Assembly (NCBI GenBank): GCA_963749915.1
Contig: CAVVOP010000008.1
Span: 128,001 to 192,000, forward strand
Length of the DNA: 64,000 bases
Direction: 5' to 3'
Origin: an uncultured cyanobacterium
GTDB taxonomy: Bacteria; Cyanobacteriota; Cyanobacteriia; Cyanobacteriales; Cyanobacteriaceae
Shown piece after piece: positions 35,001-41,000 of the stretch (positions are counted from its first letter, which is position 1; each line of letters begins with the position of its first letter). The position numbers are program-made.

Positions 35001-38000
35001 AATTTAGGAACAGCAAAAAAATTTAAACAATCTCTTTTAAGGAGGCCCCCATTTGGATTGAATAAACAAAAGAAAAAAATTGATATTTTTTGCCGTCTCT
35101 CTTTAGGTGACACAAGCAAAAAAGAATGGTACACTCAATACCGGATAATGGCTGTAGAAGCTCTAAATCCCCTAGTTTCTGATTATCAAGTTGCCAAAAG
35201 TGGTAGGGATAACAACAATCTAGTTTCTCGTCGTCAATATGATTCTGAAATTAAGAGTAGTCGAATTGTTTTTTCTCCCTTTGGTTGGGGAGAAAATTGC
35301 TGGCGCGATTTTGAGGCAATTTGTTGCGATTCTCTCTTGATTAAGCCATCAATGTCTCACGTTGCTACTAACCCAAATATTTTTATTGATAATGAAACTT
35401 ATGTGCCTGTCAAGTGGGATTTTTCAGATTTAGAAGAGAAATGTCGCTATTATTTAGAGCATTCTGAACAAGCAGATCAGATAATTAGGAATGGGAGGAA
35501 AGTTTATGAAAAGTATTTCCAAGAAGAACAATTTGTGAAAACGATTGAAAACCTTATCGAATAATGGTTTACCTATGTTAAATAATCCTGCCAATCCGTT
35601 AATACCTGTAAAACTCTTACCAGAGTCCCAGAAAAGCGTTAGTCATTGCTCATTACGCATTATCAGTAAAATTACAGCACTTTATCTTAAATTTACCAAA
35701 ATTTTTAGGCATTCCAACAAGGTCACAGCACTTTATCTTAAATTTATCAAAATTTTTAGGTATTCCAACGGTAATAATATTTTTTAATTATTGATAACAT
35801 CAATTAATATAAGCTCTGTGATACCTGAAAATATCAAGATAATCGGCGGAGTTGATCGTTATGGGGTTAATCGTCATGGGCAAGATCATTATTTGGATAT
35901 CAGTAGAAATAATTTTTAACTTTGTTGGTATAGATGACTTGATAGATTGTGCCGAATTTGTATTTGGAGAACATCTAAAACATCTGGAAGCTTGTAATCC
36001 AAGAGTAGTTCTAGTTAATACTTATGATTATAAATTAGCTTAATCCACTAAAAATCTCCCACTTGTGCCAGAATTCGATCAAGAAAACTTTCTGTTTCAA
36101 CTCCCCCCCCTCAAGTTTTTATCTATGGTCAAAGATCCTTAATTCAACGGAAAATTTACACCCGGCAATTTTTTCGAGGATAAAAGTAGTTGAAGTAACA
36201 TTATCCCTGTTATACTCTATCAAATTAGAAAAAACTTATTTGATCTTCTTTAAAACTAAATACAAAGTACTATGGTTCAATCTAATGAAGAAGGTTTCAA
36301 CTCTAACACTGAAACCATCGAGATTCAACAAACTAAACTTAATCAGAAAGTCGATAAAATAGGCATTTTTGGCCTTAATATGTTGCGATCGCTCGGTTTA
36401 TGGCGATTAGTCGGTTATGCTTTCTTAATCTTATTTATTCTAGATTTAGCGGAAATATTGATCCCCCCTCAATTTCTTAATCCAGAATGGGAATTTCAGG
36501 TATTTGGCAACATTGTCGAAAGAATAGCAATTCCCTTTATTGCCTTAATATTAATCTTTTACGGGGGCAACTATCTACGCAAAGGATGGGAATTTATTGT
36601 GTTAACAAGCCTATCATGGCTTAGTTTATCAGTGGGGATATTATTTCTCTTATCCGTGCCTTTGGGGATAGTAAATACTATCCGCATTGATAATTTAAGG
36701 GACACTAGAATTACAGAAGGGACTACACAAAGACTAGAAGTTTTACAAAAAGTGGAAACCAGACTAAAAGATGTACAAAATAAACAGGATATGCAAGTCC
36801 TAATTAATCAACTTAATAGTGGAAATGCACCTGTTATCGAAAATGATCAACAATTAGCACAAGTCAAGACTAACTTAACAGAATTTATCAAAAATTCCCG
36901 TGATCGACTAAATAATCAAGCCGAGAATGCTCGTAAACAGGGCAGAAAATCTTTGTTAAAAAGTTCTGTAAAATGGAATTTAGGTGCCTTAATATCTGGC
37001 ATTTTATTTATTATGATATGGCAAATGACTAAATGGGCGAGAGTAAAGGAAAAAACTAGCAATTAATTTGAGGAATCTTGAGAATTATTTATTATCCATG
37101 GTTTTGAAGCCGAATTTGACCTTTAGGTTTTGATCGACTTCGGCTATTTTGCTAATATCAATTCCTTTATTCTTTGCTTCTTTTAAGGCTTTTTTGTCTG
37201 CTGTATAATTCACTTTTTCCGTGCGATATTCTGGGGGTAATTCTTCAGGTTTTACCTTAATATTTATCCGAGGATACTCCCTAAATATTAAACTTCTTTC
37301 TTTTCCTTCCTCTTTTTTGCTTAAGATTTTTTGTTGATATAAATTTAATAATCTTTTTTGTAATAACTCCTGTCCTTTTTTTAATTCTTCTACTTGATTT
37401 TGCAACATTTCGTTAACTTTTTTCTGCCTGGCATTAGCACTAGTGATGGCTAATTCATATTGATCATTTATCCACGCAAAACCATCTATATCGGTATCTA
37501 ATTTTGCCAATAAAGAGATAATTTTTTCCTCATCATCATTGTCCATTAATTGTTGCCAAATTTGAGCCGCTTTTTCATGATAATTTTGATGTAAGGAAAT
37601 GACAATATTATCGATTTTTTCCTCTTGATTGTGACCAATTTGTTCACCAATTTTTTCTAAGGATTCATGATAGTTTAGATTAGATAAATTCTGATTTTGT
37701 TCTAAATTATTATTAACCCAATTTTCCTTAAATTTGCGTAAATATTCTTGATAAAGGTTTAAGATATTGACCGATGATTCCATTTTTCTTTGTCGATAAA
37801 TTTGTCTTAATTCTCCCAATAATGCCCAGCGATGATCGAGATCCAAACTTAACTCTAAAAACTGCTTAAATTGTCGATAAAATCGGCTTAAACGCTCATC
37901 TAAAATATTTTTCGAGACATTTGATGTATTTTCTAAAATGATTTTTACTTGCTCTAAATTAGTTTCTCCTTGTAAATAATTAATGATTTCTTGGGCAAAA

Positions 38001-41000
38001 GCTATGGCAACTTTTTCCACAGATAAAAAATGATTATGAGGTAAAAAAACTGGAAAAGCGAGAGAATTAAAACCGCTACTATCCGCTAAAGTTAGACAGC
38101 GATTAATGATGGTTTTAACTAAGTTTAAGTCCGTTAATTCTGGATTTTGATATTCATAAATAATACTATGAAAAATCGCTTCTATTTTTAATTTTCCTCC
38201 CCTGGTAGTTAAAATTTGTCCTAATTGTTTTATTTTCCTTTTTTCTAACTCTTTACTGATACTTTTACCACCCTTAGTGAGCAAAATTCTGGCAATATCT
38301 TCACTCATGGACAAATCTATGTCAGTATAGTTAACTAAAACCTCAACATTACAATTAATCAAGGAATTATATTCAAGGATAAGTTGAGTATTAGCGATGG
38401 TAGTTTCCCAGACGAGATTAGTAAAATTTTCGGGAGTTTTAGGGGAAATAACAGGAGGGGGAGGATTAAAATCTAAACCTTGTAAATTTTGCCAAGTTAA
38501 GGGTAAACTGGCAGGATTTTGACAGATAATAGGCAACCAAGTAGCACAAGGAAATTGAGTTTCAAGGGGTTGCAACTTTTCTCTGGCTTGTCTGACAGCT
38601 AAATATAAAGGTTGATTATCAGCAAAACTTTGTAAAAATTCCTTGATAAAAACGTGGGCAACGGTATCAGGTATCATTTCTCCCATGACTATAATTTGGG
38701 ATAGGTGTAAAGCGACTAAATCTTGTGCTAATCCTAGGCCATCACAGGAGTTAAAAATAGCCAATTTTAAACCTTTTTGAATCGCCTGTTTTAAGGCATT
38801 CTTAAATTCTTCAATGGTGATAATATCTTCTTCATTTAGATATAATTTACCTTGCCATGTTTCTTCGTTTTTACCACTATGCCCCGCAAAAAAAAGTACG
38901 TCCCATTGTTGTTCATAAAGATGGTAAAATAATTCTTTGGGACTAGGATTAGTTAAAGTAATTATTTCCGCTTTTTGTAAATTACTTAAAGCTTCCTGAT
39001 CGGGTTTTAAATTGATGCCTTGACTATTGCCAAAAACTGCTAAAATTTTAATGTGAGAGCTTTGTTTTATGGTTAAATTTAAAGTGGTATACTCCACAGG
39101 AGCGATAGCTAATTCCGCCTTATTATATAGATTAAGAAAGGAATCAAAAAATAAATGCCAAGGTAAAAAATGCAACTCTTTAATATTAGTCTGAATCAAA
39201 AGTCTAATAGATTCTTGAGTGTTTAATTCTCTTAATAATGTTTCCCTAATTTTACCGAAAGATTCGGTTTCACAGTGATACCAATTTCTTAAAGTTTCCT
39301 TGAGTTGAGAGGCGGAGATTTGACAATGATTAGTAACGTGAGTAATCTGTTGTTTGGGGGATCCTAATCTTACTTTTTGATGTAAACTGCGATAACTTTC
39401 CCGCCATTGTTGATAATGTTGGGTGATAGGTTTACAGGGGGGAAGTTTTCCGGTGATGGTCGTAAAAGGATGAGTAATACCATCGGGATTATCTTCACAA
39501 ATTTGTAAACTGACATCAAAACCATTAAGGAAACTGCCCGATTCTAGTTTGAAAAGAATTAATTTACCCATATTTGACAATGAACAGTGAACAATTAATA
39601 AAGACAAAAAGCAATGGATCATAAATAATCAATAGTTGTCAATTATCAATTGTTATTAGTCATTTATGGTAGCAACAAATCTGCACCTCCGGGGGTTGGT
39701 AACACAAAAACAGGAGAAGAATTATTAGGAGTGGGAGTTTCTTTGGGTTTTTCTTGAGGGTTATTTTCGGCATTAGGGTTATAAATACTTACCAACACAT
39801 TGACTAATTCATTTCGTTGTTGCATAGTCAAATTTTCGATGATTTTACGATCGCCACTCAAGGGATTTTGTGTTAAAGTGCTAAAACCCGGATAACGTTC
39901 ATCATTGATAATTTCATTTTTACCGAGATAATCGGCCAAACTTAACTTCCAATCTAAACGAAAAGTCGTAGGTCTTGCTTTAATATATTGATGGTATCGA
40001 ACAATGCGACTAACTAAAGTATTCTCGATAGCTCTTTGATTAGTTTCTTGACTGGTATAATTATTTTCCACAGGAAAGTCAGGTATTTGTTGATAGACTT
40101 CCGCCGCCACTTTTTCAGGGATGATAGTTTGGGCAAAAACAACGGGAGAGTAGGAATAATTTTCCCCGAATAATTGCCCTTGTGGAAAGTTTAGATATTG
40201 ACCAAGATAACTAATAGTAAGGGTGGTAAGTAAAAAAACGGAGTATTTTAAACCTTTAACTCGCCATAATCTGCTTATGTTAGTCATCGCTGATAATTTC
40301 TGGTTGCGTAAGTTCATCGGACATTTCTATAATAGCTCTGAGTACTGGTTTCATCACCTCTTCTATATTCTCAAAGTCTTCTTTTCTTCTTTGTTTCGCC
40401 CTTTTGGCAACGGCCACAGTTATTTTATAACGATTTGATGCCGCATCCATTAATTCATCACTGCGAAACATTATTTGACTGGAATCAAAGCTATTTTTTT
40501 TGAGCATTCTTATTTTCTCATCAGGTTTTGGTGTTTAATTATACCCTACTCTCAATCCTCACGCAAAATCTCTAAAAGTAAGATAATGGGAATAGTGTAT
40601 ATTAATTATCAATTATCAATTATCAATTGTTAAGATGGCATCTAAATCTCCGGCTTCTTCCTTATATTCTTTAGCTCGTAATAGTCTGCAACAGTCAATC
40701 ACGTGGTATTCTAGTAATCGTCGTTATTGGAATTACCCCCCAAACGGGGAGTTACAAGTAGCGGTAAGGGATGATTTAAGAATATTAAAAGCGGCGGCGG
40801 AAAAATTAGAGAAACAAATGATTAAAATAGCGGCTTTTGGCTTAGTAAGTCGGGGAAAATCCTCAGTTATTAATGCTTTATTAGGGCAAAAAGTTTTAAC
40901 TACTGGCCCTATCAATGGGGTTACAAAATGGCCTCAGTCGATACGTTGGAATCCCCCGACAGGTAAAATACAAATTGAGTTAATCGATACTCCCGGATTA

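Follow-up and report, generated by a model that had tools for sequence, protein, structure and literature searches.

The 828-residue protein encoded on the minus strand of a 64,000-nucleotide stretch of DNA from an uncultured cyanobacterium (hereafter the window) is tentatively read as a cytoplasmic, homodimeric, stimulus-regulated EACC2-caspase (CHAT) protease with a Gp157-like specificity module. Its C-terminal module begins with a macrodomain, continues with a helical linker and ends in a complete Gp157-like domain, whose homologues are small plasmid-encoded proteins of cyanobacteria. The macrodomain appears to be a worn-down ADP-ribose reader and is combined with a domain of plasmid or phage type that is predicted to dimerize, so that a cue from DNA or from a mobile element is a more probable trigger of the protease than ADP-ribose.

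Gene and domain architecture

The minus strand holds a single long open reading frame at window positions 37085-39622, which comprises 845 amino acids when counted from the first ATG. All orthologues begin at a conserved MGKLILFKL start, corresponding to M18 of this frame; therefore, the gene spans 37085..39571 and encodes 828 amino acids followed by the stop. The survey's finding (g00817) described a real gene, but its length of 840 amino acids has to be corrected; residue numbers of that form equal those of the 828-residue form plus 12. Both domains named earlier were recovered by Pfam in the 828-residue form, CHAT at 112-345 (E 5e-13) and Macro at 413-508 (E 6e-9), and a full-length AF2 model based on a 28-row alignment reached a pLDDT of 76.3, comparable to the 73 reported before.

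Constant N-terminal region and CHAT protease

Residues 1-115 (39227..39571, minus strand) form an alpha+beta part with three strands followed by helices in the AF2 secondary structure. They directly precede a caspase-fold CHAT domain (residues 116-352; 38516..39226, minus strand), which is defined by PF12770 (E 5e-13), Foldseek and its catalytic dyad. No Pfam model matches the N-terminal part, and Pfam contains no EACC2 model; the part is read as the constant component named EACC2 in the description of cyanobacterial EACC2-caspase proteins (e.g., EACC2+CASPASE+CHASE2) by Kaur, Iyer, Burroughs and Aravind in 2021 (PMC8195603). The dyad residues His231 (codon 38879-38881) and Cys276 (codon 38744-38746, both minus strand) lie in the motifs FFAGH231S and FNSC276DG, are identical to H243 and C288 of the longer form and do not vary among all 28 aligned homologues. 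As far as the sequence goes, the CHAT core is intact and its catalytic residues are kept. The fold match to Csx29 was obtained again (8EEY_B, E 8.3e-10, 385 columns); at the sequence level, solved CHAT proteins gave no match.

Residues 1 to about 365 share 41-48% identity with CHASE2-, STAND- and kinase-fused and other proteins, and the constant N-terminal domain is common to hundreds of cyanobacterial proteins with other C-terminal modules. The N-terminal part and CHAT are indeed the same module that bears CHASE2 elsewhere, and together they are the published EACC2-caspase module, whose C-termini are described in that paper as variable, with macro, trypsin and pore-forming TM modules included (PMC8195603). 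Among 65 representatives sharing residues 1 to about 365 at 41-48% identity, 16 kinds of partner were found, with the eight STAND-type NTPases counted as one: CHASE2 (19), STAND NTPases (8), pentapeptide repeats (3), TPR, PsbP, PBP, DUF2690 and DUF4214 (two each), and Macro, COP23+trypsin, EAD4, TIR_2 (P0138), PA14, Pkinase and NfeD (one each); a further 18 representatives have CHAT alone. This variety agrees with the published description of the C-termini (PMC8195603).

CHAT is connected to the macrodomain by a Pro-rich linker (residues 353-385; 38417..38515, minus strand) of low model confidence (pLDDT below 50 at 366-378), which is a candidate self-cleavage site. The linker is disordered yet conserved (identity 0.60 within the clade), as would suit a protein in which the constant EACC2-caspase part senses the stimulus and cuts the protein, and the freed Macro-Gp157 portion acts as the effector on DNA ends (e.g., by capping, as Mu Gam) or on ADP-ribosylated targets. 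The cleavage step is common to this explanation and the preferred one; sensor and output are swapped. Passages of PMC8195603 propose 'autopeptidase activation ... via the constant caspase domain', and the trypsin and kinase partners resemble outputs, not sensors. However, the commonest partners (CHASE2, STAND NTPases and periplasmic binding proteins) are classical sensors, the Gp157-like domain is without a known toxic or enzymatic output and the macro pocket appears inactive, so that the release of an effector is conceivable but rather doubtful.

A degenerate macrodomain

The macrodomain (residues 386-548; 37928..38416, minus strand) is recognized by PF01661 (E 6e-9; 36 bits, above the cut-off of 22), by sequence matches to PDB entries and by Foldseek. 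Its assignment to the macroH2A/PARP14 type held up: macroH2A1.2 (1ZR5, E 8.9e-12, TMt 0.79) is the best single-domain match, followed by PARP14 macro2 (5O2D, 1.3e-11) and macroH2A1.1 (1YD9, 2.5e-11), and TMt values of the Macro matches range from 0.75 to 0.83. Canonical macrodomains contact ADP-ribose through an adenine-contacting Asp, a Gly-rich loop 1 and a G-x-G loop 2. These motifs were tabulated for 28 homologues, comprising 20 sequences of the Geminocystis/Cyanobacterium clade and 8 distant relatives. The window protein has S403 in place of the Asp, SMSEDI (S421-I426) as loop 1 and PVFLPHN (P507-N513) as loop 2. Within the clade, the Asp is replaced by S, N, K, T or E in 19 of 20 sequences, the exception being P0026 (SYDNL), and both canonical loops are lost in all 20 (loop 1 SMSEDI, loop 2 PVFLPxN); all three motifs are lost together in 19. 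Three of the eight distant relatives (P0036, P0039, P0085) keep D, MGGGVS and PALxTG, and the Pfam Macro score of 74-76 bits in P0034/P0036 is halved to 36 bits in the window protein. PARP14 macro2, the best sequence match of the macrodomain among PDB entries, is an ADP-ribose binder although its loop 1 is not of the GGG type; it does retain GTGNLG in loop 2. Judged from these motifs, the missing Gly loops hint at, but do not prove, a loss of ADP-ribose binding, and distant or ancestral versions that have these loops intact were probably readers of ADP-ribose.

In the alignment, Glu424 falls on D227 of macroH2A1.2 (1ZR5), a non-binding macrodomain; this is the position of G224 in macroH2A1.1, and the exchange G224E is reported to abolish binding by macroH2A1.1 (PMC8232725). 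The sequence is nearer to macroH2A1.2/macroH2A2 (E 3.6e-6) than to macroH2A1.1 (E 0.018-0.023) and shares with the former an acidic residue for the pocket Gly and a Pro in the distal-phosphate loop. In contrast to these proteins, the macrodomain of the window is bacterial, resides inside a protease, belongs to unrelated biology and is putatively rather than demonstrably non-binding.

The survey's finding had proposed a protease gated by ADP-ribose or a derived signal, in which binding of this ligand to the macrodomain would switch on CHAT. Such a mechanism would resemble the Macro effectors of type II Thoeris, or the type IV Thoeris caspases, which are activated by N7-cADPR. The fold match to ADP-ribose-binding macrodomains (E about 1e-11), the canonical loops of distant family members and the fusion of TIR_2 to one relative with the CHAT module (P0138) are in line with this model, and precedents for Macro as a receptor of TIR signals and for a signal-activated caspase-like effector are outlined in two preprints (bioRxiv 10.1101/2024.10.24.620036, 10.64898/2025.12.03.692087). 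However, the three contact motifs are gone in 19 of 20 clade members, with only the adenine-position Asp retained in P0026, a Glu occupies the G224E-equivalent position and the Macro score is halved. Profiles of TIR_2 and SIR2, which did give matches in control genomes, found nothing in the 100%-complete genome (PF01582 lay outside this search), and the macrodomain of this gene is the only one present. Together with the lack of a PADLOC match and of a signal-maker gene near the locus, these results argue against the model, and ADP-ribose gating of this copy is unlikely.

A Gp157-like C-terminal domain

The C-terminus had been described as a long coiled coil. It starts with a helical linker (residues 549-655; 37607..37927, minus strand), which contains three long helices in the AF2 model (H559-594, H598-623 and H634-652), but is more than a coiled coil, as residues from about 656 to 828 (37088..37606, minus strand) constitute a complete Sipho_Gp157 or 'Mu Gam-like' domain supported by phrog_253, PF05565, tblastn, AF2 and BFVD. 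The phrog_253 model matches the window fragment with E 7.1e-6 (fragment residues 20-160 against model positions 17-155 of 169) and 20 of 22 rows of family and stand-alone proteins. PF05565 matches 20 of the 22 rows of the domain alignment (best 5.5e-16) and 19 of 28 full-length members; the window's own copy scores 18 bits, which is under the cut-off of 28.6, and covers model positions 7-149 of 162. The top BFVD match is 'Siphovirus Gp157' (E 5.2e-4). The domain is composed of small helices, a helix of about 50 residues and a beta region (AF2 pLDDT 80.8) and can be aligned over its full length to stand-alone proteins of 181-229 amino acids, with which it shares the helix-then-beta layout. It differs from them by its fusion to a protease and by the lack of the basic C-terminal tail seen in 7 of 10 cyanobacterial stand-alone rows.

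Using tblastn, plasmid genes annotated as 'siphovirus Gp157 family protein' were found with E values down to 3e-12, and the nearest stand-alone relatives lie on cyanobacterial plasmids (21 records matched, among them 13 conjugative and 3 mobilizable plasmids). Stand-alone copies have genes for relaxase, integrase, Prim-Pol, ParB and transposases among their neighbours. No other long protein with the domain was seen among 7,994 scored candidates, which is weak evidence and holds for this profile. Phage Gp157 is reported to take the slot of Mu Gam, upstream of erf/sak4-ssb (PMC8093625), and the 'resistance' tied to the Gp157 name goes back to a non-coding ori element (PMC6356513). The link to Mu Gam and Ku consists of the PHROG label and a weak Pfam match (PF07352, E 0.0014 in 1 of 22 rows); neither Gam nor Ku was recovered among the structure matches of Foldseek and VIA-align, and no solved relative of the domain was found by sequence or fold. 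To our knowledge, no biochemical function has been established for any Gp157 protein.

The Gp157-like domain is predicted to form an antiparallel, intertwined homodimer. The predicted dimer reached ipSAE values of 0.66, 0.69 and 0.66, compared with 0.00 for the best of three controls, with a partner pLDDT of 86 and contacts that agree to at least 97%; among proteins of solved structure, 20 of 30 pairs and 1 of 23 single chains attained the mark applied.

Distribution and genomic context

The gene is present in 10 of 19 other genomes of the family, i.e., in all six of Geminocystis (g1), all three of g3 and one of two of g5, and is absent from g2 (0/5), g4 (0/2) and g6 (0/1). The earlier count, 3 of 5 genomes, came from a smaller sample. 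The gene was also found in two genomes from other families of the order, and Cyanothece sp. PCC 7425 has a shorter CHAT-Macro form; therefore, the architecture is wider than Geminocystis and its close relatives, to which it was thought to be confined. It is a single-copy gene and intact in every genome carrying it, with open reading frames of 820-841 amino acids at 12 of 12 orthologous loci. In-frame stops reported for two genomes are an artefact: the stop counted was the natural one, read through because the query had a longer tail. Among the best 120 matches, 40 are CHAT+Macro proteins, close to the 39 estimated before, and 80 cover only the N-terminal 43-50% or so. The latter had all been taken for CHAT-CHASE2 proteins, which is true for 76; in three others CHAT is joined to pentapeptide repeats, and in one to a STAND NTPase and repeats. 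Identity within the clade is 0.74 for both the N-terminal part and CHAT, 0.61 for Macro, 0.65 for the Gp157-like domain and lowest, 0.48, for the helical linker.

The gene has ordinary neighbours, rpoZ, a GTPase and an ABC permease among them, and its surroundings are not a defence island. The 16 open reading frames scanned between window positions 30917 and 45173 include neither CRISPR-associated nor signal-maker genes. No PADLOC model matches the locus even at E<=0.01, a wider threshold than the 1e-8 used previously, and no conserved operon partner was found, consistent with the missing conserved neighbour of the survey's finding. Given its presence throughout Geminocystis and g3 and the lack of a defence island, a core cellular role is no less plausible than one in conflicts. 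The protein might accordingly be a lineage-specific housekeeping protease for chromosome or plasmid DNA transactions, e.g., in the double-strand-break response or in the control of resident plasmids, and not be directed against invaders. Its single, always intact copy in every genome sampled from two genera, its ordinary neighbours and the five resident stand-alone Gp157 genes, which lie on small contigs of the same genome, would suit such a role. However, rapid partner swapping in the wider EACC2-caspase family, as seen in the 65 representatives and described in PMC8195603, is typical of conflict systems, and the genomic position is kept only among close relatives; a housekeeping protease is considered quite unlikely.

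Proposed mode of action

In the tentatively preferred reading of a stimulus-regulated EACC2-caspase protease, the Gp157-like dimer would tie two protease units together, and the domain would serve as the specificity element for a cue from DNA metabolism, such as DNA ends, ssDNA/SSB intermediates or a plasmid or phage partner protein. The signal might pass via the helical linker to the macrodomain and release the activity of CHAT, which would then cut in cis, probably in linker 353-385, and/or other targets. The macrodomain of the clade would not read ADP-ribose canonically and could be a structural or allosteric spacer or bind another ligand. It is also conceivable, though improbable, that the chromosomal protein is a bait-type guard, whose Gp157-like domain, captured from DNA-handling genes of conjugative plasmids or phages, either joins the Gp157, SSB or recombinase machinery of an invader in a common assembly or competes with it for DNA ends; this engagement would fire the protease and stop plasmid establishment or phage replication. 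If true, a defence protein would sense invaders via a homologue of the invader's own protein.

Comparison with known systems

Both domain roles are known in bacterial immunity, since type II Thoeris uses a Macro effector and type IV a caspase-like effector, as far as described in the sources on these systems. In contrast to Thoeris, a partner TIR gene was not detected here with the TIR_2 profile, PADLOC gave no match and the motifs of the macro pocket are lost. Csx29 (TPR-CHAT) of the type III-E Craspase and SAVED-CHAT of type III-B CRISPR share with the window protein the CHAT fold, the His/Cys dyad and the concept of a protease that is inactive until its sensor module is engaged; however, the window protein has neither TPR nor SAVED, and its locus lacks CRISPR-associated genes.

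The EACC2-caspase proteins are similar in having a constant N-terminal alpha+beta domain directly before the caspase fold and a C-terminal module that varies across relatives. Unlike in that family, no ECF sigma, DUF1822 or TRADD-N gene lies beside the locus; a CHASE2 paralogue on contig C22 of the same genome has an adjoining DUF1822. The TRADD_N search carries no weight, as control genomes gave no match either. The C-terminus of the window protein differs in bearing a Gp157-like domain. The term 'Gp157' does not occur in the main text of PMC8195603; a search of the supplements, aimed at 'CASPASE+Macro' and not at 'Gp157', did not turn up that architecture.

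The CHAT-Macro gene and its protease core

CRISPR complexes, cyclic oligoadenylates and TIR products are known to activate bacterial caspase-like proteases that act as immune effectors. The minus strand of the window carries one long ORF at 37085-39622; since the start MGKLILFKL is common to every orthologue, the gene was placed at 37085-39571 (-), encoding a protein of 828 amino acids (P0002), and the 840-residue numbering of the survey corresponds to the one used here plus 12. Both domains reported by the survey were recovered, with Pfam CHAT at residues 112-345 (E 5e-13) and Macro at 413-508 (E 6e-9), and an alignment of 28 CHAT-Macro proteins (36-100% identity) shows the catalytic residues His231 (FFAGHS) and Cys276 (FNSCDG) in every row. 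A full-length AF2 model built from this alignment (pLDDT 76.3) reproduced the earlier Foldseek matches in the PDB, namely macroH2A1.2 (1ZR5, E 8.9e-12), PARP14 macro2 (5O2D, E 1.3e-11), macroH2A1.1 (1YD9, E 2.5e-11) and Csx29 (8EEY_B, E 8.3e-10, 385 columns). A profile of the full-length alignment matched macrodomains alone among the PDB sequences and no CHAT structure, and no PADLOC model matched the protein at E<=0.01. For RNA evidence, the 7 sequencing runs found were all of metagenome DNA. The genome contains 10 CHAT matches in total. A second CHAT protease gene of the window, at 4020-4826 (-) within a 942-aa ORF (contig C8, 132020-132826), reaches a Pfam CHAT score of 215.8 bits, far above that of the CHAT-Macro gene.

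The N-terminal half of P0002 is the module of the EACC2-caspase family described by Kaur et al. 2021 (PMC8195603), in which a constant domain, EACC2, precedes CHAT. Among 50%-identity representatives, the first ~365 residues match 2,965 proteins at E<=0.001, 1,443 of them still at E<=1e-30. In 65 representatives scanned, the partner was CHASE2 in 19, STAND-type NTPases in 8 and pentapeptide repeats in 3, while 18 carried CHAT only; TPR, PsbP, periplasmic binding protein, DUF2690 and DUF4214 occurred in two each, and Macro, COP23+trypsin, EAD4, TIR_2, PA14, Pkinase and NfeD in one each. This agrees with the available text of PMC8195603, according to which the C-termini vary between CHASE2, kinase, STAND and 'ADP-ribose-processing macro domains'. 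'Gp157' is absent from its main text, and the supplements searched, though not for 'Gp157', hold no EACC2+CASPASE+Macro row; the three-part architecture of CHAT, Macro and a Gp157-like domain was not found in the literature searched. The metagenome representative P0138 (586 aa), a relative of the EACC2-CHAT module, carries an N-terminal TIR_2 domain (E 9e-19) and is the one place where the family meets an NAD-cleaving signalling domain. Weak Pfam matches to the Death domain at residues ~58-126 (E 0.014-0.025) were seen in 5 of the 28 aligned proteins (rows 14, 15, 17, 18 and 20); they lie where the N-terminal domain is helical and were taken as probable noise. Bacterial Death-like domains are discussed by the describers of the family. 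TRADD_N (PF09034) had no match in the genome, but none in the control genomes either.

A Gp157-like domain at the C-terminus

The survey had described the C-terminal part as a long coiled coil. When the 28 CHAT-Macro proteins were scanned singly, 19 matched Sipho_Gp157 (PF05565; best 7.4e-8), and the homologue P0038 matched phrog_253, 'Mu Gam-like end protection' (5e-11). With a query of Macro plus C-terminal part, many stand-alone ORFs from 401 genomes of the order aligned to the last ~160 residues; those extracted and aligned measure 181-229 aa. In a 22-row alignment of family members and stand-alone ORFs, PF05565 was found in 20 rows (best 5.5e-16) and phrog_253 also in 20; the copy in P0002 reaches 18 bits against PF05565, below the cut-off of 28.6, and matches phrog_253 with E 7.1e-6 across 139 of 169 model positions. 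AF2 folded residues 650-828 (pLDDT 80.8) into three short helices, a helix of ~50 residues and a beta region, and in a viral structure library this model matches best to a phage 'Siphovirus Gp157' (E 5.2e-4). Together, these results replace the coiled coil with a helical linker (549-655) and, behind it, an entire Gp157-like domain (656-828).

Searches of the PDB with the C-terminal model gave nothing at E<=0.001 with Foldseek and long-helix and coiled-coil rows alone with wide VIA-align (Z<=5.2), outcomes that tell neither for nor against a Gam/Ku fold; the profile of the C-terminal alignment yielded spurious short matches to designed TIM barrels and nothing else. As the PDB searches were uninformative, a Gam/Ku fold is undemonstrated for this domain. 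A search for the Gp157-like domain in other long proteins gave 30 matches, all from the CHAT-Macro-Gp157 family, which is weak evidence of uniqueness because the search scored solely candidates sharing words with the query. Homodimer prediction scored 0.66, 0.69 and 0.66, while the best of its three controls stayed at 0.00; the partner pLDDT was 86 and the contact agreement at least 97%. Among proteins solved as pairs, 20 of 30 attain this mark, and among those solved as single chains, 1 of 23. The predicted contacts include the whole beta region and couple position ~49 to ~90 and ~56 to ~83, an arrangement in which the long helices would run antiparallel. The modelling thus supports a dimeric Gp157-like domain.

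Stand-alone Gp157 genes

Gp157 is common in phages and plasmids, and we know of no biochemistry for it. A tblastn search with the C-terminal domain matched 21 plasmid records, all of them cyanobacterial, of which 13 are predicted to be conjugative and 3 mobilizable; the matches are mostly annotated as 'siphovirus Gp157 family protein'. The same search against 50,697 phage records found none at E<=1e-3. Genes near eight stand-alone copies encode a relaxase, an integrase, a Prim-Pol, ParB, an AAA ATPase and a transposase. The window's genome has five stand-alone genes, one on the 940-kb contig C8 (874187-874711) and four on contigs of 22-55 kb (C12:7599-8033, C10:25449-25907, C13:20167-20574 and C15:20099-20473), the last of which is broken and carries stops. 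The N-terminal sequences of ORFs adjoining these genes suggest an SSB, a pair of HigB/HigA type and a reverse transcriptase of a group II intron. For Firmicutes phages, PMC8093625 describes Gp157 genes in the position otherwise held by Mu gam, upstream of erf/sak4-ssb modules. The 'phage resistance' of the family name stems, according to PMC6356513, from a non-coding origin element and not from the protein.

The macrodomain and ADP-ribose

The survey proposed ADP-ribose, or a signal derived from it, as a candidate gate of the CHAT protease. The distant members P0036, P0039 and P0085 retain all three canonical macrodomain motifs, namely an Asp preceding strand 2 (Y-x-D-[IL]-T), MGGGVS as loop 1 and PALxTG as loop 2. 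In the Geminocystis/Cyanobacterium clade (n=20), the Asp position is S, N, K, T or E in 19 sequences (EYNSL in the window protein; P0026 has SYDNL), SMSEDI, or a variant that lacks the Gly pair, forms loop 1, and PVFLPxN forms loop 2. P0033, P0034 and P0037 are intermediate, and P0038 and P0040 have neither the Gly-rich loop 1 nor the canonical loop 2. Against Pfam Macro, P0002 scores 36 bits, compared with 74-76 for P0034 and P0036. PARP14 macro2 is the best sequence match of the P0002 macrodomain, and PARP14 macro2 binds ADP-ribose although it has no GGG in loop 1, which cautions against reading motif loss as non-binding. Among macroH2A proteins, the non-binding macroH2A1.2 (E 3.6e-6) and macroH2A2 (2e-4) resemble the domain more closely in sequence than macroH2A1.1 does (0.018-0.023). 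According to PMC8232725, the non-binding paralogues have D227/E227 where macroH2A1.1 has G224, and a G224E variant fails to bind ADP-ribose; in the HMMER alignment, from which the residue mapping is taken, Glu424 of P0002 aligns with D227 of macroH2A1.2. Judged by its motifs, the macrodomain is decayed as an ADP-ribose reader in this clade. It is still conserved (mean pairwise identity 0.61 within the clade) and therefore has some role. It is also the sole macrodomain of the genome, which is 100% complete and has no match to TIR_2 or SIR2, whereas control genomes did match; DarT (PF14487) was found neither in the genome nor in the controls. An ADP-ribose gate, for which the motifs of the distant members would speak, is given lower odds than sensing through the C-terminus.

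Distribution and neighbourhood

Full-length orthologues occur in 13 of the 401 genomes: the window's own, all six of Geminocystis (g1), 3/3 of genus g3, 1/2 of g5 and two from other families of the order, with 0/5, 0/2 and 0/1 in genera g2, g4 and g6. The survey reported in-frame stops in some relatives; all 12 orthologues fetched are intact ORFs of 820-841 aa, and the apparent stops arose because the longer tail of the query aligned beyond the natural stop. A housekeeping role, with which the intact frames would sit well, is given lower odds than the sensor reading. Shorter CHAT-Macro forms without the Gp157 part exist: proteins of 632-694 aa, including one in Cyanothece sp. PCC 7425, and second copies in two Geminocystis genomes. 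Synteny is weak: 4 of 12 loci have rpoZ and a 217-aa ORF upstream, and 4 of 12, of which one is from another genus, have a convergent gene downstream that encodes a multi-pass membrane protein of 264 aa. In the window, this protein (P0266, 36272-37066, +) has no Pfam match. At 40635-41969 (+), a DUF697/dynamin-like GTPase matches the PADLOC models LeoA/LeoBC (E 1.6e-11 and 6e-11); since it shows 88% identity in three close relatives whose fetched loci contain it, it is probably a housekeeping protein.

Proposed mode of action and comparison with the EACC2-caspase family

The observed domains, catalytic dyad, homologies and motif loss, together with the predicted dimer, fit a dimeric, regulated protease with its specificity in the C-terminal module, where the Gp157-like domain is the best candidate for the sensor. 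Its cue might be DNA ends or a partner from a plasmid or phage; this cue would be coupled to CHAT, which may cleave within the 353-385 linker. A stimulus-induced autopeptidase step is also proposed for EACC2-caspases in PMC8195603; for P0002, this release model is considered less probable than the sensor reading. The cyanobacterial EACC2-CHAT family is very large, and its CHAT-Macro-Gp157 member is a fully cytoplasmic, single-gene case, which brings a soluble, tractable candidate sensor in the form of the predicted-dimeric Gp157-like domain and would supply a first functional handle on Gp157. The natural series from intact to decayed macrodomains furthermore lets ADP-ribose gating of EACC2-CHAT proteases be asked directly.

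Genes for an ECF sigma factor and DUF1822 often adjoin EACC2-caspase genes, as outlined in PMC8195603. The CHASE2 paralogue of the same genome lies in this canonical family setting, in a cluster (contig C22, 116716-127224) of ShlB/POTRA, a 229-aa ORF without Pfam match, DUF1822, EACC2-CHAT-CHASE2 (784 aa), DUF928, Uma2 and a convergent TPR-CHAT gene (914 aa); another DUF1822 gene is located at C21:428261-429640. In contrast to its CHASE2 paralogue, the CHAT-Macro gene stands without any of those neighbours.
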